Virus record (IMG/VR): IMGVR_UViG_3300050505_000309
Span: 26,764-90,763 of that record
From: a virus
Length of the DNA stretch: 64,000 nt
Direction: 5' to 3' (one strand)
Shown: positions 13,143 through 45,649 of the stretch, piece by piece
How positions within the stretch are numbered: the stretch's first letter is position 1
Layout: each line of letters starts with the position of its first letter
Notes under the pieces: model-generated
The model's input: only the letters and a program-made list of their open reading frames with translations
Databases searched by the model: none
What the model was told of the DNA's origin: nothing
Made by a program: the position numbers and the translations under genes

Positions 13143-13980
13143 CAGGCCCTCCGGGGTCAAGGGAACGGCGATCGCCATCGGGATCGGTCCGTGCGAGCTT
13201 GAACAGGGGGTCCTGCTCCATCGGCGGCCGCGCGATGCCATCCGGCGGCGCGTACGGGCGACGCGGCTCGATCGGCCCCAACCGCTCCGCGAGTTCGCGG
13301 ATCGAGGCCTGGACCTGCTCGCGCGACACCGGCTCCTCCGGCGCGGCGGGCAGCGCGGGAGCTGTCGTCGATCGCCCCGGCTCAAGCGCGCGCTGGGCGA
13401 TGGCCCGGCGACCGTCCGGACTGAGCGCCAACACGTGCTCGCGGTGATCCACCGCGTGATCCCAGCTCCCGCGCGTCTCGTTGTTCGTGATCTCGAAGAT
13501 CCCCGGCAGATACGCGGGCGTGCGGCCGGGGAGATGCCGCGAGTACGCGCGGTACCGCTCGATGAACTCGTGGCGCTGATACCCGAACGCCTCCGCATCG
13601 TCGCTGGTCGGATCCGGGAGTCGCGCGGCTTGCCCGGCCCAGCCGCCGAGCGCGACGATGGTCATGTGCATCACGGGATCGCCGAAGTCGACCGACTGGT
13701 AGCTGCCGATGTGGCCCACCGCCGCGACGTAGCGGTCCCAGGCCAGCACCGCCTGGTCCTTCGCGTCGCCCAGGACGGCCGTGCGCAGACTCGCGATCGT
13801 CGGGAAAAACTCGCTCGCGCGCCGACGCTCGCCGAGCGCCCGCACCACGTCGTCGATCTCGAGATCGCGCAGGTCCTCGAAGTAAACCGCCACCCGCTGC
13901 GGCGTGAACTGGATCCCGTACGCCTCCGCCGTCGCCGTCATCGCCTGCCCAAACCGCTCGTAGTCGCGTTCGCGATTCAT
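13132..13980 (-). CDS. replication accessory protein (helicase loader/inhibitor-like, DUF6475-like)
   Basis: Coupled to the initiator; FFPTIASLR, AVLAWDR and SVDFGDP motifs typical of phage genes following rep. Confidence 0.65.
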   Translation of the reverse strand: MNRERDYERFGQAMTATAEAYGIQFTPQRVAVYFEDLRDLEIDDVVRALGERRRASEFFPTIASLRTAVLGDAKDQAVLAWDRYVAAVGHIGSYQSVDFGDPVMHMTIVALGGWAGQAARLPDPTSDDAEAFGYQRHEFIERYRAYSRHLPGRTPAYLPGIFEITNNETRGSWDHAVDHREHVLALSPDGRRAIAQRALEPGRSTTAPALPAAPEEPVSREQVQASIRELAERLGPIEPRRPYAPPDGIARPPMEQDPLFKLARTDPDGDRRSLDPGGPDGR

Positions 13981-14966
13981 GATTTCTCCAGTGACGCGAG
14001 GAGCCGCCCCGCCTCGGCCACCGCCTCGATGTTCGCGCGAGTTTTCCCGGACAGACTCGCGAGCCACTTGTTGTCCCCGTGCGCGACGAGCTTGCCGAGT
14101 TGGCTGTTGAACACGCGGAACGTGTAGCCCGCCTCCTGCAACCACGGCGAGTTCATGCGGAAGAATCCCTCGACGAAGATCAGCACCTTGTCGGACCCGT
14201 AGGTCTTGAGCATCGCTTGCGCGAGTTTCGCCTCGGCTCCGCCCATCGGCGGATGCGGCGCGGAAAATTTCTCGCGGAATTTCTGATCGAACACCGCCAG
14301 CAATTCCTTGATCGGGTGGTGGCCGTTCGTGCCGTGGCCGTTGCGGCTGCTCAGGCCGCTGTTCGGTGGGCTCGGCGTTGGGTTGTCCGGCGGTTCCACA
14401 GTCGCCGAAGCCGAAGGCTCGGCAAGAGAGGCTCCGGCTACGGCTCTGGCTCCGGATCTGGATCTGGTTCTGGCTAAGGCTCTGGCTCTGGGCTTCGAGG
14501 GGGCTTCGATGGGGCTTGGAAGGTCCTTCGGAGGGCCTTCATTTCGGGGGACATCTTGCAGGTGGTAAGCCTCCGCGTACAGGTCAAGAAAGTCATTGAA
14601 GAACGGGGTGTTGCGGACGGACTCTAGATCGCGTTTGATGCCGATAACGTTCTTGTCTTTCGCCTGGAGCGCATTCCCGATCTGAATGCTCGCCATCTTG
14701 GGGATCCAGACGTGTTCTGTGACCTCGTCGTAGTAGGCAAATCCCTCTTCGGAGAGCCTCCGAAGGGCCTCCAAAGCCCCTTCCAAGGGGCTTGCTGTTT
14801 CATGGCAGAGCGTCGGGAGCGGGAGGTAGTAGAGCCCGAGCCAGGAGGCGGTTGGACACGTCACCAGATAGGCGGCGACGACGAGAGTCTGATGCCCGTG
14901 CTTGCGGAGTTCGCGTCCGGTGGAACCCGTCCAGAACTGAGGGAGGACCTTGCCGTAGTTGCGCAT
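13977..14966 (-). CDS. phage replication initiator / replisome organiser
   Basis: N-terminal winged-helix-like YGKVLPQFW...YLVTCP...GLYYL; low-complexity linker; DnaB_2-like C-terminal helices; position before loader gene. Confidence 0.78.
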   Translation of the reverse strand: MRNYGKVLPQFWTGSTGRELRKHGHQTLVVAAYLVTCPTASWLGLYYLPLPTLCHETASPLEGALEALRRLSEEGFAYYDEVTEHVWIPKMASIQIGNALQAKDKNVIGIKRDLESVRNTPFFNDFLDLYAEAYHLQDVPRNEGPPKDLPSPIEAPSKPRARALARTRSRSGARAVAGASLAEPSASATVEPPDNPTPSPPNSGLSSRNGHGTNGHHPIKELLAVFDQKFREKFSAPHPPMGGAEAKLAQAMLKTYGSDKVLIFVEGFFRMNSPWLQEAGYTFRVFNSQLGKLVAHGDNKWLASLSGKTRANIEAVAEAGRLLASLEKS

Positions 14967-15295
14967 CAGATCTCCGCTCCCGGCGGCGCGCGATTCCGCG
15001 AGATCGGACGCGAGACGACGCGCGGGACACAGGCCGCTGCGGGGCAGACTGGTGCGATCTCGAGGACCACGAAACAGAGTTGCGGTGGAACGAGCAACGG
15101 CAGAAACATCGCCCAGGAGACGCTCGCAATCTCATCGTCTCCATCGGCCCCGTCGTAGATGCCCGCGATCCACATGGGATCGGGCAAGCTCGCGTGGGCC
15201 AGTGGGGTCAGGCTGATGAGGCAGGCGATCAGCACGAGCAGCACGACGTGCGCAAACAACGGGAGGTGCCGGTCGTCGACTCCGCTCGTCTTCAA
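14966..15295 (-). CDS. membrane-targeted leader protein with C-terminal RAPP motif (putative translation arrest peptide)
   Basis: TTG start with GGGGGAGG SD; signal-like helix to AHA; DPMWIAGIYDGADGDD; RAPP at 14981-14992; TGATG overlap with rep. Confidence 0.65.
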   Translation of the reverse strand: MKTSGVDDRHLPLFAHVVLLVLIACLISLTPLAHASLPDPMWIAGIYDGADGDDEIASVSWAMFLPLLVPPQLCFVVLEIAPVCPAAACVPRVVSRPISRNRAPPGAEI

Positions 15296-15462
15296 CCGGC
15301 CTCCCCCAAGAAGCGCTCCGTGGATCCGGCCTCGCTACCGGCCACCGCTGGGCTCCTTGGGAAAGCCGGCGATGTTTCCACGGAACTCGGATACGTCCAC
15401 GTGGTGCAGCAACTTCTACCTGACGTGGACGGATGACTCAGTTATTTCGACTGTGCGACGTG

Positions 15463-15492
15463 ATCCTATGCCGCCGCCCCCGCGAACGCCAA
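15463..15492 (-). promoter_or_regulatory. sigma70-type promoter for the RAPP-rep operon
   Basis: TTGGCG (15487-15492) - 18 nt - TAGGAT (15463-15468) on the minus strand. Confidence 0.5.
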
Positions 15493-15510
15493 GAGAAAAA
15501 TGCATCGCGA

Positions 15511-15552
15511 TCGTCCACAAATCATCCACAGGTTGTCCACATGCGTGGACGG
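15511..15552 (+). promoter_or_regulatory. DnaA-box-like array
   Basis: TCGTCCACA, TCATCCACA and TTGTCCACA head-to-tail at 11-bp period (15511, 15522, 15533), plus weak inverted copy at 15544-15552. Confidence 0.65.
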
Positions 15553-15558
15553 GAAATT

Positions 15559-15930
15559 TTACGACGCGGGCGGGACTTGCGGACCTGGCACCACAACGGC
15601 CGGCGCGACGATCGTTCGCCGTCGATATGGATTCGCCCTGCGCGCGCGCCACACGGTCGCCTGCTTGAGGGCGTTGCAGTTGGCACATAGCGTCTGAAAC
15701 CCTGGTGGGAGCCGCCGACGTAGAAGTAGGGCGTAGAAGTGGACGCCAGCCTTCAAGCGATGCCGACCGTCCCGAGCAGCGCGTTCGAGATAGCCGTCGT
15801 CGTTCACATGGTCGAGCTGTAGGGCGTCCAGGTTCGAGTAACCGCAGAGCACGCACGCGAGCCTCCCGTTCCCGTAATGCGTGAGCACGATCACCTTGTT
15901 CCGCTCGCGACAACGCTGCCGAGCCACCAT
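15559..15930 (-). CDS. HNH endonuclease (C-terminal part of an apparently split gene)
   Basis: CVLCG...LQLDHVNDDG...LCANCNALK. Confidence 0.8.
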   Translation of the reverse strand: MVARQRCRERNKVIVLTHYGNGRLACVLCGYSNLDALQLDHVNDDGYLERAARDGRHRLKAGVHFYALLLRRRLPPGFQTLCANCNALKQATVWRARRANPYRRRTIVAPAVVVPGPQVPPAS

Positions 15931-16064
15931 GCTCGTTCGGGGAATCGTTGACGCCAGCGGCGAGCCACGGTGGCCATGTAGCTAGGGTTGTTCTGTCGCC
16001 ACCCCTGGAGATACGCTAGCCGCCGTTCTCGGTCCTCCGCCGTCTCGGTCCGCCGTCTTGTCAC
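15891..16064 (-). CDS. basic helical ORF, probable N-terminal half of the HNH gene
   Basis: GGAGGA SD before GTG 16064; RERRLAYLQGWRQNNPSY resembles HNH N-terminal helices; overlaps the next ORF by 40 nt. Confidence 0.5.
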   Translation of the reverse strand: MTRRRTETAEDRERRLAYLQGWRQNNPSYMATVARRWRQRFPERAWWLGSVVASGTR

Positions 16065-16290
16065 CCCAGATCCTCCGCGTGATGTCTCTTTGAGCAAAGA
16101 ATCCGAGATAGGAAGCCAGCGCTAGCACGGTGGTGGTATCAGCGGGACCGATCGCCATCTTCCAGTGCCCGAAGTCGATGGCGAAGCCGCCGATCAGGAT
16201 GCGGCCCGTGAGCACGATGGCGGCGGGGATGGCCAGCGTGCAGGTCCAGGATGGCGAGCCGCTGGCGTCGCGGACGAGGCGGAGCTTCAT
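15982..16290 (-). CDS. small 2-TM membrane protein
   Basis: ATGA overlap; two hydrophobic segments. Confidence 0.65.
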   Translation of the reverse strand: MKLRLVRDASGSPSWTCTLAIPAAIVLTGRILIGGFAIDFGHWKMAIGPADTTTVLALASYLGFFAQRDITRRIWGDKTADRDGGGPRTAASVSPGVATEQP

Positions 16291-16565
16291 GGGCACCGGA
16301 GTGGCCGCTCACCGAGTCGGTAGAGCAGCCGGTTCGCCTGCGCCTCGAGTTGGTCGATCTCCACGGCCCGCTGCGTCATCACGGCCTCCGTCGCGCGCAA
16401 CTGCTCGAGCACTACCTCGTCGGCCTGGTCCATCGTCCGGAGCCGGTCCCGCTTGTTCGCCAGATCGATCCAGTGATCCCACCCGCGCCGCGCGGCCCGG
16501 AGCACCTCGGAGAGCCGCTCGGAGAGTTCCTGCTCTTCGCGCGTGCGTTCAGCACGCCGTTTCAT
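16287..16565 (-). CDS. coiled-coil hypothetical protein (92 aa)
   Basis: Heptad-rich helical sequence; coupled. Confidence 0.65.
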   Translation of the reverse strand: MKRRAERTREEQELSERLSEVLRAARRGWDHWIDLANKRDRLRTMDQADEVVLEQLRATEAVMTQRAVEIDQLEAQANRLLYRLGERPLRCP

Positions 16566-26690: not shown

Positions 26691-26892
26691 GCGAGTCCTC
26701 GTACCGGAATACGCGCCGGAGGTTCAGGGCCTTCAGGATCTTCGGTCCCGGCTGCCGATTGCCGGTCAAGACGTCGGTGAGATACTGCGAGGACACCCCG
26801 AGCGCTTTCGCCGCTTCGGCCTGGTTGTCAAACAGCTCCACTTGGCGTCGGATCCGTGCCACGACTACCGACGCGGTGACCGTAGATGCCAT
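26674..26892 (-). CDS. Cro/XRE-family HTH regulator
   Basis: NQAEAAKALGVSSQYLTDVLTGNRQPGPKIL. Confidence 0.88.
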   Translation of the reverse strand: MASTVTASVVVARIRRQVELFDNQAEAAKALGVSSQYLTDVLTGNRQPGPKILKALNLRRVFRYEDSRANDS

Positions 26893-37297: not shown

Positions 37298-40200
37298 CTA
37301 GCCCCCCACTCGCGCAGGCCGGATGCGCGCGGCGATGACCTGGCCGAGCCGTCCGGTCCGGATGTTCTGCTCGATGGCGTCGAGGACCTCGCGGCTGACG
37401 GCCTTCGGGTCCTTCGCTCCGGAGATGTTGATGGCCCCCTCGGCGATGTGCAGCGCGATCTGCGAGACCCCGCCAGCGGAGTGATAGAGCCCCGATCGCG
37501 CGGCCGCCGAGACGTCTGACCCCGGCCGGTAGACCCCGTCGCTCACGAGGCTCTCAAGCATCGCGGCGTTCTCCCGCGCGATGCTCGCCGGGACCACGAA
37601 CTCGTCCGGCATGAGCATGGCCGGGACCGAGTCGCGCCCCCGAGATCCGCCAGTGACCCAGCCACCCAGCGCGAAGCCGCCGCCATCCGGGCTGACGATG
37701 GACTGGAGCAGGTTCGGATCCGCGCCAGCAAGGGCCTGCACGAGGTTCACCGAGCTCACGTTCGGCAGCGTGACGGTGGGGATCGGCCGCTGCCCGAAGT
37801 TCTGGAAGTACGGCGAGAGCAGGCTCGACACGCTGGGGAATCCAAGACTCCCCTTCGTCCCGGTATAGGTGATGCCCCACTGCCCGGTCCGTGGGTCGAG
37901 GATCGGGCTCGGGTCCAACGTCCCCGCCGCGATGCCGTTGATGACATCTTGCGGGTTCATCGTGATGGCCTGATAGCCGCCAGCGCCGTCCGGGACGAAC
38001 ACCGGCAGGTTAGCCCCCGCGATTTCCGTCGCGAAGTTCGTCGACTCGCCGGAGAAGCCCTGCGCGACCTGTACCTGATTCAAGCCCTGTGGGGGCGGCG
38101 ACTGTGAGAGGTTGTAGAGCCCGACGCCCGGCCCCTGGTTGAAGTACCCCAGGGACGTCACCCGATTGCCCGGGAGCACCTGAAGGAGCTGATCGATGAA
38201 GGCCTGGATCTGATTGATCGGGTCGCTGAGGCTGATGTTGAGCCCGCCTTCGTGCGCCGAGCCACCCGCCTCCGGGAACGCCGGGATCTTGTACGGATCG
38301 GGCGTGTCCTGCCCGTACCAGGGCCAGCCGTTGTCCGACTGCACCCACGTCCGGAAGGAGTTGATCAGGCCACCCAACTCCTCCTTGCTCTGGACGTACT
38401 GCATGTCGGTCGCGAGCCGGGAGATGTCGGTGCCGCCCTTCTGGAAGGTCTCGAGCAGACGGGTCCCGAACGTCTGCCAGGCCGTACTCGGGTAGAAGAT
38501 TTGCCCCGAGATGCCGCTCTGCCCGCCCAAGATCGCCGTCGGGTCGTTCGCCGAAATGATGGATTGCGAGAAGCTCTGACCCGCACGTAGGCGGTCGATG
38601 AAGTCGAGGATCTGGGTGACCGCGAGGCTCGCGCCGAACGTGGGACCGGCCGCGAGCACGGCGGCGGTCTTGGCGGCGATCTCGGCGGCCGCGATCGCCT
38701 TGTCCTGGTCGCTGGCGTTGCTGGTCGCGATCTCCGAGATCTGGAACGCGGCGAGGGCCGCCTTGATCACCGCCCCGGCATAGGGGATCGCATCCGTCGG
38801 CAGGAGATCGATCCCGAGGCCCGTCGCCGCATCCGAGATGAGCCCGGAGAGGAGGTCGGTCGCCCCGGGGACCGCTCCGGACGTGAGCGTCGAGATCAGA
38901 TCCGAGAGACTGATCCCCCCGCTGATGCCCCCCTGGATCGCCTGGAGGATGTTGCCGCTCTGGAGGCCCCCCGCGAGTGTCAGGCCGCCCGTGAGGGTCC
39001 CCAGGAGCGAGCCCAGGGTCGTCGGTGCGCCGCCGAGCAGCGCCCCGCTACCACTCGTGGCTTGCGAGAGGGTGGAGATGGTCGAGAGGAGCCCCAGGAG
39101 CGGAGAGGCAGCCTTCAGGATCGCCATCGGGTTGCCGGACTGAATCGCGAGCCCGAGCGGCCCCAGGAAGCCGCCCCCCTGTGGGACGCCGGGGCCGGTG
39201 ATGCTGGCGAGGCCCCCACTGGGGCTCGAGGTGATCAGGCCGCCCGCCGTGGCGGTCGTCGGTAGATGCGCGCCCGCCGTTCCGCCGGCCCCGCTGGCGC
39301 TCGCCACCAGCCGCGTGAGGAACTGCTGGAGCGTGAGCCCCGAGCCGCCCGCACTCGCGGTCGCGCTGGGCGACCCGAGCGCGCCCACCACGCTCGGCGT
39401 CGAGGGGATCGAGATGGTGGTTGGCGACGCAGCTCCGTTGACCGAGACCCCGCTCCGCTGGGCAAGCTGCTGAAGGATCGCCGCAGTGAGCTGCGTGTTG
39501 GCCGCGATCTGGGCCTGGGTCTGGGTCTGCGTGCTGTTGACGCTCAGGAGCGCCTGGAGCAGGAGGAGCGCCTGGACATCCTGCGCCGTGAGCGGCACCG
39601 TCCCGCCGTCAGCGAAGTGCAGGCCCCGCGGCCCGGTCGGGATGCTCTTGTTCCCCCCGATGAGGTGCTCGAGCCAGGGCCGCAGCGGACCCGCGAACTT
39701 CTTCGGGATGACGAACTCGCCGGGCTCGAGCATGGCCGGGACGATGTCGCCCACGCCCATGCCGGGCACATGGCCGCCGGACTGGAACGCGCGAATGTCG
39801 CTGAAGTTGGTGTCGAGACTCCCCAGGTCCGAGAAGCTGAACGAGCCCAGGTTCCCGAAGTTGAGGTTGATGTTCGGGATGGTAAGTTGCAGGTTCATCG
39901 CTTCCATGGCGCTCGCCAGCGCGCTCTGGAAGTCCGCCGAGCCCAGGGCAAACTGCGGATTCGTGACCGTGACCCCGCCCGCGCCCGCCCCCGGCGCGCC
40001 CCCGCTCCCGGGCAGCATCGTGTCGTTGTACTTGACGCCGAAGATGCTCGGGAACGTCTGCTGGAGCCACGCGGTCAGGCCGATCTTGTCGGACAGGGAC
40101 ACGGCCCCACCGAGGAGGCTCGCCCCGCCACCGAGTGCCCCGAGGACGCCGAACGCGGCCGCCGTCGAGGCGGTTTGGTTGCCGCCCTGCGGCGTCGGCC

Positions 40201-43200
40201 CCGTGGGGGCCACCACCTGGCCAGTCGGGAACGGGAAGTTCTGCCCGGTGAGGAGCCCGGCTCCCAGATTGAGGTTGATCCCCGCCGCCGCCGCCTGCGC
40301 GGACACGATGGCGAGGAGCGACTTCATGTCGGAGGCCATCGAGGCGGTGTTCTTCTGGGTGAGGTCCTGGATACTGACGGAGTCGCCCAGCGCGGCCTTG
40401 AGGGCGTCCTGGATGTCGTTCGCCTGCTGGTCGACCGAGACCTTGACGTCGCCGAGGGTCGCGATCACCTCGTCGTAGATCGCCCGGTACTCCGGCGACG
40501 GCCGGGTGAAGACGTCACTCGCCGCCTTCAGGAGCGGGTCGACGAGGGCCTGGAGCGCCTGCGCGTTCTCCGGCGTCGGGCTCGCCTGGAAGGCCGACTT
40601 GGCGGCCTCGAACCGGCCCTGCGCGAGTTGGAAGCCCTGGAGCGGGTTCGTCGGGCCGAAGTTGGAGAGCTGAAGCTGGAAGATCTGGTCGTCGATCGAC
40701 TTGCTGACGCTCTTGAGGCTCGTCGCGAGCGAATCGAGTTGCCCGGCGAACTGCTGGACGAGTTGCGTCTCGTTCTGGTACCGATCCTCGATCAGCTTCT
40801 TGATCTGGGTCGTGTAGGAGAGGATCTGGGCCGGATCCGTGGTGGTCGCGAGCAGGCTCTCGAGCGAGGCCACCTGCGCCTGCTCGCCCGCGATGAGCTG
40901 ATCGACGGTCGCCCGGAAGTTGACCGCCTGCTCCTTCAGGGTCTCGAGATTGGCGATGCCGGTCGCCGCCGGCGAGACCGCCTCGGCGGAGATCTCCGCG
41001 ATCGTCTGGCTGATCTGCCGGTTGATGTCGTCGAGCGCGGCAACCTTGGCCAGGATGGTCTGGACGACCTCCTGGTTGAGCGGCCCCAGGAGATCCGGCG
41101 ACACGCCCGCCTGGACGCTGGCCGTGAGGGACGCGGGGTTGGCCCGCAGCGCGGTGAGGAACTGCTCCTGGGTGAGGTTGCTGACCGATTGGCCCCCGAC
41201 CGCGAGCTGAACCGGCTGCCGGGTGGCCGCCGCGAGCGCCCCGCCGCCCTGGAAGCCCAGGATGGTGTTGTAGAGATCCGTGAAGGTCGCCGAGGACTTG
41301 ACGGCGGCCTCGAGGGCGGTCTGAACGGTCGAGATGCTCCGGGACAGCTCGTCGAACTTGCCTGCCGGTGGCGTGTTACTGCCGAAGAGGCCGCCCAGGA
41401 AGCTGCCGATGAGCCCGCCCGCGCCCGCCCCGATCGCGGTGGCTCCGAAGAGCGAGCCGATGATCCCGCCGACCGCCGTCCCGGCGAGGCCGCCGGTCCC
41501 CGAATTGCGGTCGCGCTGCGTCGAGAGCTCGCTGGTGAGCTTCAGGACCGACTGGGACGCCGTGTACGCGGCGGCGACCGCCCCAGCCGAAGAGAGATCC
41601 TTGCTGATGTTGCCGCCGGAGCCCACGATGCCGGTCGTGCCACGAGGCACCCCGGAGGTCGAGTTCGGGCCACCCGCCGCCCCGGGCTCCCCTGGCGGCG
41701 ACGTGCTGACGGTCGACGGCGTCGTCGGGGGCAGGCCGAAGAGCGCGGCGGAGAGGCCGCCGGCCTGGAAGTTGGACACGATGTTGCCGAAGCCGCTCCC
41801 GACCCCGCTCACGAGGTTCGCCGCACCGGGGATCCCGGTCCCGGTGCCGCTGTCCCCCGTCCCCGTCAGGATGTTCAGGAAGCTCTTCACGAGTTGCTTG
41901 CTCATGAAGTCGGCGAGCGCGCGCTGCATCGAGTCGAGGAAGCTCTTCCACGCGTCCTTGCCCGCGTTCAGCTTGTCCTGGAAGGAGTTGAAGAAGAAGT
42001 CCGAGAAGGCCGACGTCATGGCCTTGGCCGTGTCCTGCGCCAGGGTCTTGATGTCGTCGAAGAAGTCGCCTGCGGCGTTCGCCGCCTGCCGGAGCGCCGA
42101 GACGAAGTAGGTCCCGACCTGCCCGGCGGCCTTCGCGATCTCCTGGGTCGCCTGTTCCTGCTGATCGCGGGCGACTTTCTGCTGATCGTTGAGCACCTTG
42201 AGGGCGTTGATGCCGTCCTGGATCTGCTTCTGGCGCTCGAGGACGGCCCCGGCCTGCCCCGCGATCGAGTTCGCGTCCGTCGCCGAGAACCCGAGCGCGA
42301 CGAGGCCGGCGGCCGCCGCCGCATTCTTCATCTCCTCGGTGGTCCGGGCGAGGAGGTCGATCTCTTCTTGCTGCTTCGGCGTCAGGTCGTCGTAGGACTT
42401 GCGCCAGTTGGCCCGCGCGAGGATGTAGCGGTTCAGCTCCTCGCCCACCCGCCCGAAGCCTTCCCGGAGGCCGTCCAGCCGGTTCTGCTCGTCCTGGGTC
42501 TGCTTCTGGATCTGAAGGGAGGTCGCCTCATCACTCTGCGGGAGCAACTTCGTCGTGATGATCGTCGCCGCCGCGCGCTTCTTGTCCCGATCCGCCTGGG
42601 GCAGCGACTCATCATTGATCTGCCGCAGGAGATCGGCGAAGTCCTTCGCCCCCGCCTTCATGGCCGCGATGTTGGCGATCCACTCTTCGCGGGTGTACCC
42701 AATCTCAGCCCGGAGCTTGAGGATCTGGTCGGTGACTGCGTCGACACCGACCTGGCGCTCGAGAGACCGCTGGGTCACCTCCTCGGGGGTCGGGGCCGTC
42801 TTGCCGGTCACGGCGCTCGTGATCCCGCGGAGCTTCTCGGCGTCCTCGATGTTCTTCTTCAGCGCCTTGTTGAACTTGTCCCACCCGGACTCGTAGTCGA
42901 GTTGGGTGATCGCCAGGAGCGGGTCCACCCAGTAGCGATTGATGGCCTCGCCGATCTGGATGTACATCTTGTTGATCTCGGAGAACTGGGCCGGCGAGAG
43001 CGGCGCGAATTGGGCCGAGTTGAGCACGTCGCCGAGCTTCTTGTACTCGTCGACGGCGCGCTCAAGTGGCGAGATCTCCTTGAGCTTGCTCTGCTCGGTC
43101 GTGAACTTGGCGAAGAGCTCGACCACCTTCTTCTGGTCGGCCTCGGTCTGCGCGGCGAGCTTCTGGCTGATCTCGATGGACTCGTTCGCGTCCTCCCGAC

Positions 43201-45649
43201 GCAGCTCCGTCGCCTGCGACCGCGCGCGCCGCTCGGCCTCCAGGGCGGTTTGGAGCTTGCCCTTGTACTCGTCGAGCGCCGCGATGTCCTTCGGGGTCAG
43301 TGAGGCGGTGGTGTCGTAGTTCTTCTCGGCGATCTGCCGCTCGCGCGTCTTCTCGGCCAGGAGCGCGTCGGCCGCTGCGATGCGCGTCGCGTACGAGAGC
43401 GACTTATCGTTGACCGTAAACTCCAACTCGATCTGGTTCTTGAGGATCGCCTTCTGCTTGGCGAGTTCCGCCGTCAGATCGATCATCTTCTTGAGCTGGC
43501 CGGACTGATCGCCCGGCTGGAGCTCAATGTTCTGCGCATTCTGAAGGGCCTGCGCGTTGGCGCGCGCGAGATCCTGCTGCTGCTTGGCCTGCGCCGCCGC
43601 CTCGGCGTCGAGGCGGGCCTGAGACGGCGGCAGGACGCCCCGGTAGGCCGCTTGCGGTGACGCGAAGCCCAGGAGCGCGGAGCCGGTGATGTTCGAGCCA
43701 GCCGCCCCCTGCGTGGCCGCCCCCGCCGCCCCGCCGGTCGCGCGGTTGGCTGCATCGATCAGCGCCTTGACGTCGCCGAGGTACTTGCGGAGCTCCTGGC
43801 CCGCGATGATCGCGGCCCGCGTGACGATGTCGAAGAGGCCAACGAGGCCGTCCGCTTGCCCCGGCTTGACTCCGGAGATCGCGTTGACGGTCAGGGTGAT
43901 CTCGTTGAAGAGTGCCCCCTTGAACCGTCCGGCCGCCGCACTGATGGTGTTGTTGAGTTCCTCCTGGGCCTTCTGCGTCCGACCGGCGGAGTCGGCGACG
44001 TCCTGGAGGGCCTTGGAGTACTGCGGGTAGAGCTCGACCAGTGTCTCGAGGGCGAGGGTCGCGCGCTTGTCCGGGAAGGCCGAGTTGATGAGGGCCTGCG
44101 TCTTGAGACTGTCGGTCCCCAGATCCCGGATCTTCTTGATGACCTCGTCCAGGAGCTTCGTCGCGTTGAGCGGGGCGTTCGGATCGAAGTCGATGCCGAA
44201 GGCCTTCGAGATCGCGCCCGGTCGCGTCTGGAGGTCAACGAGGAGTTGACGGAAGCCGGTGCCCGCCCGGCTGGCCGACTGCATACCGTTCGTCAACTGG
44301 ACGATGGCCGCCAACTGGACGTCGAGCGAGACGCCGGCCGCCTTCGCCACCGGCGCGACGTTCTGGAGCGCGGTCCGGAAGCCGTCGATGTCCTGGATTG
44401 ACGCGGCCGCCGAGCCGATCAGCTTGTCGGAGATCTGGAGGTACTTCTCCTGCGGCGTGATCGCGCTGGTGAGCGTGTCCCCGAACAGCTTGTAGAGCCC
44501 GACGAGGGTCCGCAGGATCTCTGTCTGATTGCCCTCGCCGAGGGACGCGAGCGTCAGCGCGGGCAGGAACGCCGCCCGGACCTGCTCGGAGTTGTTGCCG
44601 AGGGCCTTCTCCAACTCGAAGACGACCTTGCTCGCCTCGGTGAAGCTGACGCCGAGGCGCTGGTTCGCCTGCACCATCAGGTCGTAGGAGTCGCGGAGCA
44701 CGGTCGCCCGATCGGCCCCGTTGTCCATCGTGGCGGCGATCTTGGCGAGTTGCCGGTCGACCTCGACGAACTCCTCGGCCGCCGCGCCGATCTGGCGCAT
44801 GACCGTGTAGATGATCGTGAGGCCCGCCGCGATCTGGGCATACCGGCCGAGCTTGCCGAAGAAGCCCGAGACCGCGCCGTCGGCATCCCCTGCCGCCCCC
44901 ACGATGGCCTTCAGGTCGCGCTGGATGCTCTCGGCGGTCGCCTTGAGCGCGGCGGCGGCCTGGGGGCTCGCGGCCTCTGCGCCCCCCAGCAAGCCCTGCT
45001 GTTCCCCCGCAAGGACCGACGTGAAGGTCCCGATGCGCTGCTGAAGCTGCGGCGGGATCACCGTCCCGGTCGCCGAGGCCTTGATCTGGAGCGCGGCGAT
45101 CTTCTCGTAGGCGTTGGCGATCTGCGAGAGTTGCGAGAGTTGGCCGGTGAAGTTCCGCGCGGTCAGGGCGGCATTGGCGTCGCCGAGCCGCTGCTGCGCG
45201 ATCGCGGTCTTCTCAATCTCGGTCCGCTTGAACTGCTCGTTGGCGGCGAAGGCGCGCCCTTCGGTGAGGACGTCCTTCGCCTGTAGGGCCGCCTGCTTTT
45301 CCTCCTGGCCCCGCATGAAATCGAAGGTCTTCTGCGCTTCCTTCCGCTTCAGCTCCTCGTTCTGCTGGAAGGCGACCGTCGCGGCCTTGTCGAGCCGGAC
45401 GTCATAGAGGCCGCCCGCGATCTGCGCCTTCAGTTCAGAGAGGGACTTCTTCGCGGCCTCGATCTGCCGCTGGAGATCGTTGAAGGATTGCTGGGCCTCG
45501 CGGATCTGCTGGACGTTTGCCTCGACCTGGACGTTGACCGGCGGGATGCCCAGCTCGCGCGAGATGTTGGCAAGCTGCTGGCGCAGCGCCGAGACGTCGG
45601 CCCCGACGGTGAGCAGCAGATCCGGGGTGAACTGGCCTTCAGCCATCAC
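37298..45649 (-). CDS. tape measure protein (TP901-type), 2783 aa
   Basis: Follows G/GT; PhageMin_Tail-like region (FVEVDRQLAKIAAT...ALQNVAPVAKAAGVS); Ala/Gly/Gln-rich; FxxGG...VPAML..EFV motifs. Confidence 0.95.
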   Translation of the reverse strand: MMAEGQFTPDLLLTVGADVSALRQQLANISRELGIPPVNVQVEANVQQIREAQQSFNDLQRQIEAAKKSLSELKAQIAGGLYDVRLDKAATVAFQQNEELKRKEAQKTFDFMRGQEEKQAALQAKDVLTEGRAFAANEQFKRTEIEKTAIAQQRLGDANAALTARNFTGQLSQLSQIANAYEKIAALQIKASATGTVIPPQLQQRIGTFTSVLAGEQQGLLGGAEAASPQAAAALKATAESIQRDLKAIVGAAGDADGAVSGFFGKLGRYAQIAAGLTIIYTVMRQIGAAAEEFVEVDRQLAKIAATMDNGADRATVLRDSYDLMVQANQRLGVSFTEASKVVFELEKALGNNSEQVRAAFLPALTLASLGEGNQTEILRTLVGLYKLFGDTLTSAITPQEKYLQISDKLIGSAAASIQDIDGFRTALQNVAPVAKAAGVSLDVQLAAIVQLTNGMQSASRAGTGFRQLLVDLQTRPGAISKAFGIDFDPNAPLNATKLLDEVIKKIRDLGTDSLKTQALINSAFPDKRATLALETLVELYPQYSKALQDVADSAGRTQKAQEELNNTISAAAGRFKGALFNEITLTVNAISGVKPGQADGLVGLFDIVTRAAIIAGQELRKYLGDVKALIDAANRATGGAAGAATQGAAGSNITGSALLGFASPQAAYRGVLPPSQARLDAEAAAQAKQQQDLARANAQALQNAQNIELQPGDQSGQLKKMIDLTAELAKQKAILKNQIELEFTVNDKSLSYATRIAAADALLAEKTRERQIAEKNYDTTASLTPKDIAALDEYKGKLQTALEAERRARSQATELRREDANESIEISQKLAAQTEADQKKVVELFAKFTTEQSKLKEISPLERAVDEYKKLGDVLNSAQFAPLSPAQFSEINKMYIQIGEAINRYWVDPLLAITQLDYESGWDKFNKALKKNIEDAEKLRGITSAVTGKTAPTPEEVTQRSLERQVGVDAVTDQILKLRAEIGYTREEWIANIAAMKAGAKDFADLLRQINDESLPQADRDKKRAAATIITTKLLPQSDEATSLQIQKQTQDEQNRLDGLREGFGRVGEELNRYILARANWRKSYDDLTPKQQEEIDLLARTTEEMKNAAAAAGLVALGFSATDANSIAGQAGAVLERQKQIQDGINALKVLNDQQKVARDQQEQATQEIAKAAGQVGTYFVSALRQAANAAGDFFDDIKTLAQDTAKAMTSAFSDFFFNSFQDKLNAGKDAWKSFLDSMQRALADFMSKQLVKSFLNILTGTGDSGTGTGIPGAANLVSGVGSGFGNIVSNFQAGGLSAALFGLPPTTPSTVSTSPPGEPGAAGGPNSTSGVPRGTTGIVGSGGNISKDLSSAGAVAAAYTASQSVLKLTSELSTQRDRNSGTGGLAGTAVGGIIGSLFGATAIGAGAGGLIGSFLGGLFGSNTPPAGKFDELSRSISTVQTALEAAVKSSATFTDLYNTILGFQGGGALAAATRQPVQLAVGGQSVSNLTQEQFLTALRANPASLTASVQAGVSPDLLGPLNQEVVQTILAKVAALDDINRQISQTIAEISAEAVSPAATGIANLETLKEQAVNFRATVDQLIAGEQAQVASLESLLATTTDPAQILSYTTQIKKLIEDRYQNETQLVQQFAGQLDSLATSLKSVSKSIDDQIFQLQLSNFGPTNPLQGFQLAQGRFEAAKSAFQASPTPENAQALQALVDPLLKAASDVFTRPSPEYRAIYDEVIATLGDVKVSVDQQANDIQDALKAALGDSVSIQDLTQKNTASMASDMKSLLAIVSAQAAAAGINLNLGAGLLTGQNFPFPTGQVVAPTGPTPQGGNQTASTAAAFGVLGALGGGASLLGGAVSLSDKIGLTAWLQQTFPSIFGVKYNDTMLPGSGGAPGAGAGGVTVTNPQFALGSADFQSALASAMEAMNLQLTIPNINLNFGNLGSFSFSDLGSLDTNFSDIRAFQSGGHVPGMGVGDIVPAMLEPGEFVIPKKFAGPLRPWLEHLIGGNKSIPTGPRGLHFADGGTVPLTAQDVQALLLLQALLSVNSTQTQTQAQIAANTQLTAAILQQLAQRSGVSVNGAASPTTISIPSTPSVVGALGSPSATASAGGSGLTLQQFLTRLVASASGAGGTAGAHLPTTATAGGLITSSPSGGLASITGPGVPQGGGFLGPLGLAIQSGNPMAILKAASPLLGLLSTISTLSQATSGSGALLGGAPTTLGSLLGTLTGGLTLAGGLQSGNILQAIQGGISGGISLSDLISTLTSGAVPGATDLLSGLISDAATGLGIDLLPTDAIPYAGAVIKAALAAFQISEIATSNASDQDKAIAAAEIAAKTAAVLAAGPTFGASLAVTQILDFIDRLRAGQSFSQSIISANDPTAILGGQSGISGQIFYPSTAWQTFGTRLLETFQKGGTDISRLATDMQYVQSKEELGGLINSFRTWVQSDNGWPWYGQDTPDPYKIPAFPEAGGSAHEGGLNISLSDPINQIQAFIDQLLQVLPGNRVTSLGYFNQGPGVGLYNLSQSPPPQGLNQVQVAQGFSGESTNFATEIAGANLPVFVPDGAGGYQAITMNPQDVINGIAAGTLDPSPILDPRTGQWGITYTGTKGSLGFPSVSSLLSPYFQNFGQRPIPTVTLPNVSSVNLVQALAGADPNLLQSIVSPDGGGFALGGWVTGGSRGRDSVPAMLMPDEFVVPASIARENAAMLESLVSDGVYRPGSDVSAAARSGLYHSAGGVSQIALHIAEGAINISGAKDPKAVSREVLDAIEQNIRTGRLGQVIAARIRPARVGG

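Follow-up and report, generated by a model that had tools for sequence, protein, structure and literature searches.

The element considered here is a short leader open reading frame (ORF) that ends on the start codon of a putative phage replication gene, rep, in a window of 64,000 nucleotides (nt) taken from IMG/VR virus record IMGVR_UViG_3300050505_000309 (positions 26,764 to 90,763 of that record, which is 107,417 bp long with 67% GC). The leader occupies 15295..14966 on the minus strand, encodes 109 amino acids (aa) and carries the residues R-A-P-P close to its C-terminus. The original prediction, made from the letters of the window, held that this ORF is an arrest-peptide-like leader and that a ribosome stalled on it would keep rep closed until export of the nascent chain pulled it free. 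We find that the peptide belongs to a family, defined by a PDPxW...RAPP signature, that is characteristic of the Methylomirabilota, and sequence comparison indicates that it is most likely a phage-borne copy of this exported-peptide family of the host Methylomirabilota/Rokubacteria, standing as the first cistron of a replication operon.

The leader gene and its junction with rep

The leader begins with a TTG that lies 14 codons downstream of an in-frame stop, with no ATG, GTG or TTG in between, and that is preceded at a 4-nt spacing by the Shine-Dalgarno (SD) sequence GGGGGAGG (15300..15307, minus strand); the same SD is found in the related phage contig L142, where it serves a 12-codon mini-ORF. 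GC content by codon position in the leader frame (0.67/0.48/0.81) is of the coding type, which is not the case for the overlapping ORFs in other frames. A near-identical copy (P0001, 99% identical) is present on another contig, L058, and matches the family profile with an E-value of 1.1e-35. We have next to no doubt that the leader is a real gene in a real family.

The anatomy of the predicted peptide is simple. Residues 1-35 (15191..15295, minus strand) are signal-peptide-like, as the original prediction had proposed for the N-terminus of the ORF: an AlphaFold2 (AF2) model contains a helix at residues 13-34 with a predicted local distance difference test (pLDDT) of about 90, hydropathy runs at 2-3 across residues 13-31, and the segment ends in a putative A-H-A cleavage site before Ser36, within an L-x-P-L-A-x-A-S block that is kept across the family. 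The segment expected to be exported opens with the motif SLPDPMWIAGIYDGADGDDEI (residues 36-56; 15128..15190, minus strand), recognised by family conservation and containing an acidic cluster (D48/D51/D53/D54); D39, W42, G45, D48, D51 and D53 are invariant in the family alignments A1, A2 and A5. There follows a linker of fixed length (residues 57-101; 14993..15127, minus strand) that is poorly conserved, at about 1 bit per column. A second hydrophobic stretch had been described in the peptide; it corresponds to about residues 57-87, but is only moderately hydrophobic and is rich in proline. When AF2 was supplied with the family alignment, only the signal-peptide helix was modelled with confidence, the mature part staying at pLDDT 56-74 without a fold.

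The R-A-P-P itself (residues 102-105 of 109; CGC GCG CCG CCG, 14981..14992, minus strand) is followed by four codons, G-A-E-I, and by the TGA at 14968..14966. This stop shares one base with the rep start in a TGATG (14964..14968, minus strand), and the surrounding junction, CTGATGCG, is identical in L142. Both the position of the motif and the overlap are thus as originally read. So is the GGAG (14972..14975, minus strand) that would serve as the rep SD, 5 nt before the ATG and at +11..+14 when counted from base one of the codon presumed to occupy the P site; another GGAG is at 14980..14977, and both fall between the RAPP and the leader stop.

Downstream of the leader, rep (13977..14966, minus strand) encodes a putative replication protein of 329 aa of the DnaD-like helicase loader or replisome organiser type. 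The assignment derives from PHROG matches over about the first 150 residues (25210 at 8e-44, 12196 and 1701), of which that to 1701, annotated as 'DnaD-like helicase loader', reaches 5e-30 over residues 1-142. Searches of Pfam and NCBIfam returned no match for the protein itself, and one homologue carries the phage C-terminal domain Phg_2220_C. An AF2 model places residues 11-140 in a winged-helix-like fold at pLDDT >90; Foldseek comparison of this model with the PDB gave weak matches (E > 0.1), including MarR/IclR regulators and RepA_N plasmid initiators, and a sequence-profile search of the PDB gave none. Grounded in the PHROG matches and the winged-helix model, with no curated family behind it, the label 'rep' is probably reasonable, though not proven. 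Because the Rep N-terminus (M-R-x-Y-x-K-V-x-P-x-F-W) is conserved from residue 1 in 30 homologues, the ATG at 14966 can be taken as the true start.

Upstream of the leader lies a candidate sigma-70-type promoter (15463..15492, minus strand), with a -35 element TTGGCG (15492-15487), an 18-nt spacer and a -10 element TAGGAT (15468-15463). A consensus promoter scanner made no call in this region of the window; the block is kept in L142 and in two further related phage contigs, L060 and L061 (TTGACG/TTGGGA ... TATGGT/TAGTAT; alignments A4 and A6). Directly upstream of the promoter, all four related phages carry convergent DnaA-box-like 8-mers, TATCCACA ... TGTGGATA, which in the window are the degenerate copies GTCCAC/GTGGAC. 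The unit of box pair and promoter (TTGACG or TTGGCG, 17-18 nt, TATGGT or TAGGAT) spans 15463-15560 (minus strand) in the window, L142:395-520, L060:386-470 and L061:2500-2580. Since promoter and box pair are conserved in the four phages, we regard the leader as the first cistron of the operon, and the boxes suggest a role for host DnaA, or for an origin, at the promoter of the rep operon. The two 9-nt arms of an inverted repeat, CGTCCACGT / ACGTGGACG, lie 20 nt apart (15394-15431, minus strand) in the presumed 5' untranslated region of the leader; the repeat could form a transcript hairpin or serve as a DNA operator, and it is not conserved in L142.

A family of exported RAPP peptides in the Methylomirabilota

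A word-based search first recovered the 99% identical copy and five metagenomic homologues of the leader, all sharing the block after the signal peptide and a C-terminal R-[A/G]-P-P. The profile search that followed, over 1.84 billion representatives, returned 1813 clusters at E<=1e-3, 540 of them at E<=1e-10. Family members are mostly 95-120 aa long and are matched end to end; those from bacteria score 1e-28 to 1e-14 against the family profile and are 41-45% identical to the window leader in pairwise comparison. No Pfam, NCBIfam or PHROG model covers the peptide in scans of the leader and 58 family members, and a profile search of PDB chains with the leader gave three matches, none significant (all E >= 0.27). 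In the ESM-Atlas, clusters of the family are labelled 'hypothetical protein', and their commonest phylum is Methylomirabilota.

Motifs were counted over the best 155 family representatives (P0001-P0155). Conservation of the RAPP among homologues had been set beforehand as a test of the arrest reading, and the motif is indeed kept: 147 of the 155 carry R-x-P-P close to the C-terminus (RAPP in 121, RSPP in 13, RGPP in 12, RTPP in one), the arginine and both prolines being invariant. Exactly two residues follow it in 94 of these 147. At the other end of the mature peptide, WxxGx[YFW]DxxDxD stands right after the AxA signal-peptidase site in 152 of the 155, and the family-wide form of this post-signal motif is PDPxWIxGIYDxADxDD. 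When sequences are anchored on the tryptophan, two conserved blocks emerge, one from -13 to +19 (L-x-P-L-A-x-A-S-P-P-D-P-x-W-I-x-G-I-Y-D-x-A-D-x-D-D-V-V) and the other, R-A-P-P, from +61 to +64, joined by a linker rich in A, L, V, P and S. The distance from the tryptophan to the first, presumably stalling, proline of RAPP is 63 residues in 103 of 144 members and 60-64 in all 144, with a standard deviation of 0.68. It is 62 in the window, 63 in the L060 copy and 63 in the L061 copy, despite a tail of 27 codons in the last. Because a linker that is poorly conserved and apparently unstructured keeps a fixed length, the distance between the motif and the arrest point appears to be constrained.

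Family loci in species-representative genomes were located with a back-translated DNA pattern, and their genes were called with a crude caller trained on Rokubacteria loci. The pattern found 56 loci, nearly all of them in metagenome-assembled genomes (MAGs) of Candidatus Methylomirabilota/Rokubacteria and often on several contigs of one MAG. The family is present in 29 of 81 sampled Methylomirabilota genomes at 1-13 copies; five Methylomirabilota genomes that carry it hold 2-14 copies each. Copies also occur in soil MAGs titled Nitrosotalea sp. (L002, L009, L032) and Verrucomicrobiia (L028, L034, L044). Given the near-exclusive distribution of the family in Methylomirabilota, these contigs may have been mis-binned. 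Bacterial family loci average 69% GC against 67% in the window, and this likeness, together with the distribution of the family, suggests, short of proof, that the phage infects Methylomirabilota.

In bacteria the family genes sit at the heads of operons, divergent pairs included, in very diverse contexts. At two loci (L222, G004:C57:17500-33500; L224, G003:C36:22500-28000) back-to-back divergent family genes each head an envelope-polysaccharide operon, one with an AsnB-type glutamine amidotransferase, a PMT_2 glycosyltransferase and a phosphoethanolamine (PEtN)-transferase-like sulfatase, the other with GT2 and PMT_2 glycosyltransferases. One MAG holds four copies within 10 kb, and a further copy precedes LptF/LptG. 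Other downstream genes encode NTP-transferases (6 loci), pyrroloquinoline quinone (PQQ) dehydrogenases (5 loci), HlyD-type adaptors, a DUF1344/CusF-like protein, a di-haem oxidoreductase and a PEP-CTERM protein. Judged from gene order, the bacterial family genes occupy the place of a leader ORF, and the functions encoded behind them are mostly of the envelope or periplasm. In these members RAPP mostly lies 2 codons from the stop. When the spacers between leader and downstream gene were folded for 15 bacterial loci and judged by eye, no common SD-masking hairpin was seen.

We also note that in several bacterial members (L024:1100-1130, L028, L019, L008, L031 and L032) a conserved stretch resembling GTAGCGCCTTCATCCCGTCGTCGG starts at the stop codon, perhaps an RNA element that moves together with the leader cassette.

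The leader slot in related phages

The Rep homologues P0156 (73% identical) and P0157 (67%) lie on the phage-like contigs L060 and L061. Their rep genes have the same neighbours as that of the window (DUF6475, HTH_8, HNH and a CmcI-type methyltransferase), and in both the rep start is overlapped by a RAPP-bearing ORF of the family (P0211 and P0212). The L060 leader (L060:613-903) encodes 96 aa and ends D-R-A-P-P-E-I-A; the L061 leader (L061:2639-3004) encodes 121 aa, its D-R-A-P-P being followed by 27 more codons. Both junctions with rep are ATGA overlaps, and L060 has the same GGAGATC arrangement before rep as the window. The two leaders are 57% identical to each other, and the window leader is 36% identical to them; either the linker has diverged to saturation or the leader slot has been filled more than once, and the data fit both.

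The arrangement is confined to a narrow group. A six-frame scan of 160 more distant loci with Rep homologues found the family motif in none. Where an ORF ending at the rep start could be scanned (158 of 163 Rep loci), a RAPP-like tail was seen only in L060 and L061, apart from a chance-like RAPG in L166. Across the 2.9 million contigs of IMG/VR, neither two protein-alignment scans nor a DNA pattern brought up the family on any further viral contig, and within the 107-kb record itself a member occurs at the leader slot and nowhere else.

A telling comparison is with L142, the nearest partial relative, whose Rep is 77% identical over 111 residues. L142 shares with the window the DnaA-box-like repeats, the promoter, the elements GTTCCGTGG and CGGTGGCCGG, the SD GGGGAGG and the junction CTGATGCG. 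Between this SD and the junction it has only the 12-codon mini-ORF M-T-D-T-L-S-V-G-P-S-L-P-stop (MTDTLSVGPSLP; L142:676-726), and no SD precedes its rep. Because promoter, SD and junction are thus kept around a mini-ORF, it would appear that rep in this lineage is read through an overlapping leader, and the comparison presents the RAPP peptide as an exchangeable occupant of the leader slot. The position of the leader before rep is, as this comparison shows at the level of sequence, conserved in a small phage clade but dispensable. The adjacency to rep, which the original prediction had named for checking, is therefore kept in the two related phages and in near copies, and is absent from the wider bacterial family, from the 160 distant rep loci and from L142. 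A CCTCCCC just before the L142 junction could pair with the GGGGAGG of its own mini-ORF.

The spacing from RAPP to the stop codon, likewise named for checking in the original prediction, is not conserved, being 4, 3 and 27 codons in the window, L060 and L061. What is conserved instead is the stop/start overlap, and hence coupling, together with the distance from the exported motif to RAPP.

The surroundings of the operon are those of a phage, here one from soil; the five sequencing runs listed for the region are rhizosphere metagenomes recorded as 'DNA?', with no RNA run among them. The window encodes a HerA/terminase-like ATPase, an SbcC-like protein and a 2783-aa tape-measure protein (37298-45649, minus strand; PHROG 991/1533/167), the length of which implies a long-tailed phage. 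Open frames are abundant on both strands. After rep come DUF6475 and then an HNH/PAPS-reductase-like gene. The gene at 15982-16296 is separated from the rep regulatory region by an HNH endonuclease ORF (15559-15930, minus strand; PHROG 2255). The homologue of this flanking gene in L142 directly adjoins the regulatory region, and the HNH gene of the window therefore looks like an insertion of the kind seen in homing-endonuclease-like mosaicism.

Proposed arrest, export and control of Rep synthesis

ApdA (Actinomycetota) and ApdP (Alphaproteobacteria) are RAPP arrest peptides encoded upstream of secDF, and like them the leader is small, has an N-terminal signal peptide and a C-terminal R-A-P-P, and lies directly upstream of, and co-directional with, the gene it would regulate. 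Saturation mutagenesis of ApdA and ApdP found the arginine and the P-site proline essentially irreplaceable, the change from alanine to glycine fully permissive, and serine, aspartate and proline partly so. The natural variation of our family (A far above S and G at the second position, with R, P and P fixed) matches these arrest-permissive substitutions. Bacterial proteomes are depleted of RAPP and RGPP, whereas the C-terminal ends of small secretory or membrane proteins encoded upstream of diverse genes are enriched in them (PMC12992588), and all seven C-terminal RAPP/RGPP proteins of Streptomyces lividans, as well as CruR of Bordetella pertussis, cause motif-dependent translation arrest (PMC12992588, PMC9426467). 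The features of the leader match those of this broad class of RAPP-like arrest peptides, which are shorter than 300 aa, with a C-terminal RAPP and a localisation signal (Sakiyama 2021; Fujiwara 2024, 2025), and in the window, L060 and L061 alike it precedes, in the same orientation, a gene whose expression it could control. On these likenesses of motif and position, we consider it likely that the window peptide stalls ribosomes at RAPP. It is not a strict Sec/YidC monitoring substrate, since its downstream gene is no part of the localisation machinery.

Where such a ribosome would sit relative to the start of rep differs among the three phages. From established toeprint geometry, the protection given by a stalled ribosome reaches roughly 15 nt beyond the first P-site base on the downstream side. 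With the P- and A-site prolines presumed by analogy with ApdA, ApdP and CruR, the GGAG of the window falls at +11..+14 and the rep ATG at +20, so that the SD would be covered; in L060 the GGAG is at +5..+8 and the ATG at +14, both within the covered stretch; and in L061, which has a weak SD (CAGGG), the ATG is at +83, far from the ribosome. The proposal that a stalled ribosome sits on the rep SD hence fits the window and L060 and does not extend to L061, where a minimum free energy (MFE) fold instead predicts a 13-bp stem (2951-2963 / 2986-2998) over the 15 nt before the rep ATG. From the three junctions together we infer a common denominator of another kind, namely that rep becomes accessible through ribosomes translating the leader to its end, by termination-reinitiation or by melting of a hairpin. 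A stall at RAPP would keep such ribosomes from arriving.

The exported part can be placed tentatively at the moment of arrest. According to force-profile work, a segment arrives at the SecYEG/membrane region once about 45 residues separate it from the peptidyl-transferase centre. With the ribosome at the presumed stall, this separation would be 51-57 residues for the Asp cluster of the leader and 63 for the tryptophan, and the motif would be passing the translocon or just past it. A review states that SecM arrest can be relieved when the membrane potential pulls electrophoretically on acidic stretches.

The reading that we somewhat favour, from the sequence comparisons set out above, is that the leader is a host-captured RAPP arrest peptide whose export-dependent release gates the synthesis of translationally coupled Rep. 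The signal peptide would be engaged by Sec before the ribosome stalls at RAPP, leaving the acidic/aromatic motif, about 63 residues behind the stalling proline, just at the outer face of the translocon. During the stall rep would be kept closed, by occlusion of its SD in the window and L060 or by a hairpin over the rep start region in L061. Export of the motif segment, or its capture outside, would pull on the chain and release the stall, as the signal peptide and the fixed spacing between motif and arrest point suggest; candidate cues are the pull of the membrane potential on the Asp cluster and the capture of a cation or a partner outside the membrane. The freed ribosome would read the last codons and terminate at the TGA overlapping the rep ATG, and Rep would then be made by coupling. 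Rep output would in this way follow host export and membrane state, with a sign (stall means rep off) opposite to that of SecM-secA.

A more specific form of this proposal, which we put forward only tentatively and think rather unlikely to hold in full, treats the peptide as a mechanical 'ruler' sensor. With the motif held 51-63 residues from the peptidyl-transferase centre, release of the stall would require a pull on the motif, exerted either by the membrane potential through the Asp cluster or by a ligand or partner in the periplasm (a metal ion, for instance); many envelope operons of Rokubacteria would thereby come under a common membrane-state signal, and the phage would have captured the module to license its replication in energised, export-competent hosts.

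Several points weigh against export-gated Rep synthesis. The function of rep is putative, being assigned from PHROG annotation only. The L060 leader starts at a TTG without a visible SD. Folded by MFE, the three phage junctions show no gain in stability over shuffled sequences (z = 0.73, -0.13 and -0.47), so the L061 hairpin is only a prediction. The differing RAPP-to-stop distances mean that occlusion of the SD is not a mechanism shared by the three phages. The window leader is only 36% identical to the other phage copies and 41-45% to bacterial ones, and common descent of the leader-rep arrangement is thus not supported. The RAPP peptide would seem dispensable for rep expression, because the closest relative, L142, has none. 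Moreover, stop/start overlaps of 4 nt and 1 nt are the rule throughout the phage module of the window and its relatives, as their gene lists show, so coupling to rep is not special in itself, and the window rep has a good SD of its own from which it could start independently when no ribosome is parked there.

These last points are also what lends weight to the main rival, in which the leader is an accessory gene, or moron. The peptide would here be a genuine member of the RAPP arrest family acting alone, as an exported peptide or as a decoy for a host factor that recognises the motif, packed tightly before rep and stalling too briefly to have a real effect on Rep. The frequency of overlaps in the module, the retention in L142 of the same rep promoter and junction without the peptide, the GGAG of the window at ideal spacing and the unconserved distance from RAPP to the stop would all be expected of such a gene. 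Against it, three phages hold a family member exactly between the conserved SD/promoter and the rep start, this being its only place in the 107-kb record, and no other IMG/VR contig has one; its bacterial relatives are operon-head leaders and not stand-alone genes, and the mature part has no predicted fold. We regard this accessory role as unlikely.

Two further explanations seem improbable to us. By analogy with XBP1u at the endoplasmic reticulum, a paused ribosome-nascent-chain complex at Sec might tether the rep mRNA to the membrane, where Rep would be made. Such a role would suit a replication operon whose first cistron combines a signal peptide with a C-terminal pause site, and it would suit L061, where the pause site lies 83 nt upstream of rep and the ribosome does not obstruct the rep start. 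However, a ribosome paused in the window or L060 would sit over the rep SD (in L060 over the ATG also), so that no Rep could start during the tether; the Rep sequence gives no hint of membrane association, and the idea is pure analogy. We hold it to be quite unlikely.

Equally hard to credit is the idea that R-A-P-P is a recognition or processing signal (a sorting tag, a protease site or the follower of a modified peptide) that causes no stalling. The conserved N-terminal block and variable middle do look superficially like those of precursor peptides, and Asn-synthase-like genes adjoin some members. Yet the substitutions at the four positions match arrest requirements point for point, RAPP/RGPP is strongly avoided in proteomes except in arrest peptides, the gene contexts are too varied for one dedicated maturation system, and a sorting tag needs no fixed 63-residue distance to an N-terminal motif. 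A modified-peptide precursor in particular was rejected, the neighbouring Asn synthases being full AsnB-type enzymes with complete glutamine-amidotransferase domains (E about 1e-45) that stand beside glycosyltransferases in what are envelope loci. Finally, although open frames abound at 67% GC and R, A and P have GC-rich codons, a chance frame with RAPP as a by-product is refuted by the coding-type GC at third codon positions, the hundreds of full-length homologues and the conserved motifs and spacing, and its probability is negligible.

As a candidate arrest peptide, the leader differs from those described in several respects. Beyond the four residues it has no detectable sequence relationship with ApdA or ApdP. 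Its downstream gene concerns phage replication and theirs are of the sec or yidC type; its stop overlaps the next start, whereas theirs lies upstream of an SD-masking hairpin, which gives the expected sign the opposite direction (stall means off). The family also has a conserved exported motif at a fixed distance, in contrast to Sec-type monitoring substrates, which have variable spacers and no conserved exported part. Closer in kind are SLIV_16130 and the other S. lividans peptides and CruR, which belong to the same class as the leader and precede diverse genes (PMC12992588, PMC9426467); some such RAPP/RGPP proteins have conserved extracytoplasmic residues thought to sense a signal. Those peptides are chromosomal and the leader is on a phage before a replication gene; unlike that set, moreover, the leader belongs to a single homologous family, with 1-14 copies per genome before many operons in one phylum. 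SecM, from the secM-secA operon of Enterobacterales, is likewise an exported nascent chain that controls translation of the next cistron, as proposed here for the leader, with an arrest point, R-A-G-P, that is released by the pulling force of Sec export. It is unrelated to the leader in sequence and requires a longer tunnel motif for arrest, and its stall exposes the secA SD (stall means on) where the leader geometry predicts the reverse.

Replication genes of phages and plasmids are known for obligatory translational coupling through short upstream ORFs, as in repA/repZ-type leaders. The leader resembles these in that the rep start is overlapped by its stop, and the likeness is closest in L142, with its leader of 12 codons and a rep without its own SD. 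A 109-aa exported peptide with an arrest motif would add to such coupling a gate that depends on conditions. In all, the comparison of sequences sets the leader apart from described arrest peptides by its phage location, its replication-gene target, a stop overlapping the start of that target, and its membership of a multi-copy family with a motif at fixed distance. Fujiwara et al. (EMBO J 2025; PMC12992588) and those of its supplements that were searched make no mention of the family, of phages, of replication or of Methylomirabilota, and a full-text literature search for phage or prophage arrest peptides returned nothing relevant.

RAPP-type arrest peptides were previously known as chromosomal leaders of Sec/YidC genes, to which a few metal, redox and sigma-factor genes have been added since 2025. 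If the leader stalls, it would add a virus-encoded regulatory nascent peptide with a replication gene as its target, and a stop/start overlap architecture in which arrest shuts the downstream gene instead of opening it. Should the ruler form of the proposal prove true, the leader would be without precedent, both as an arrest peptide encoded by a phage and as a connection of nascent-chain force sensing to replication control. The consequences would bear on nascent-chain regulation and on the control of phage replication alike. Independently of the phage, the host family, of about 1800 clusters, offers a natural case for the coupling of pulling force, membrane potential or a periplasmic ligand to the release of arrest; it hints that the envelope-polysaccharide operons of an uncultured soil phylum are under a further layer of control, so far unrecognised, and it merits a study of its own.

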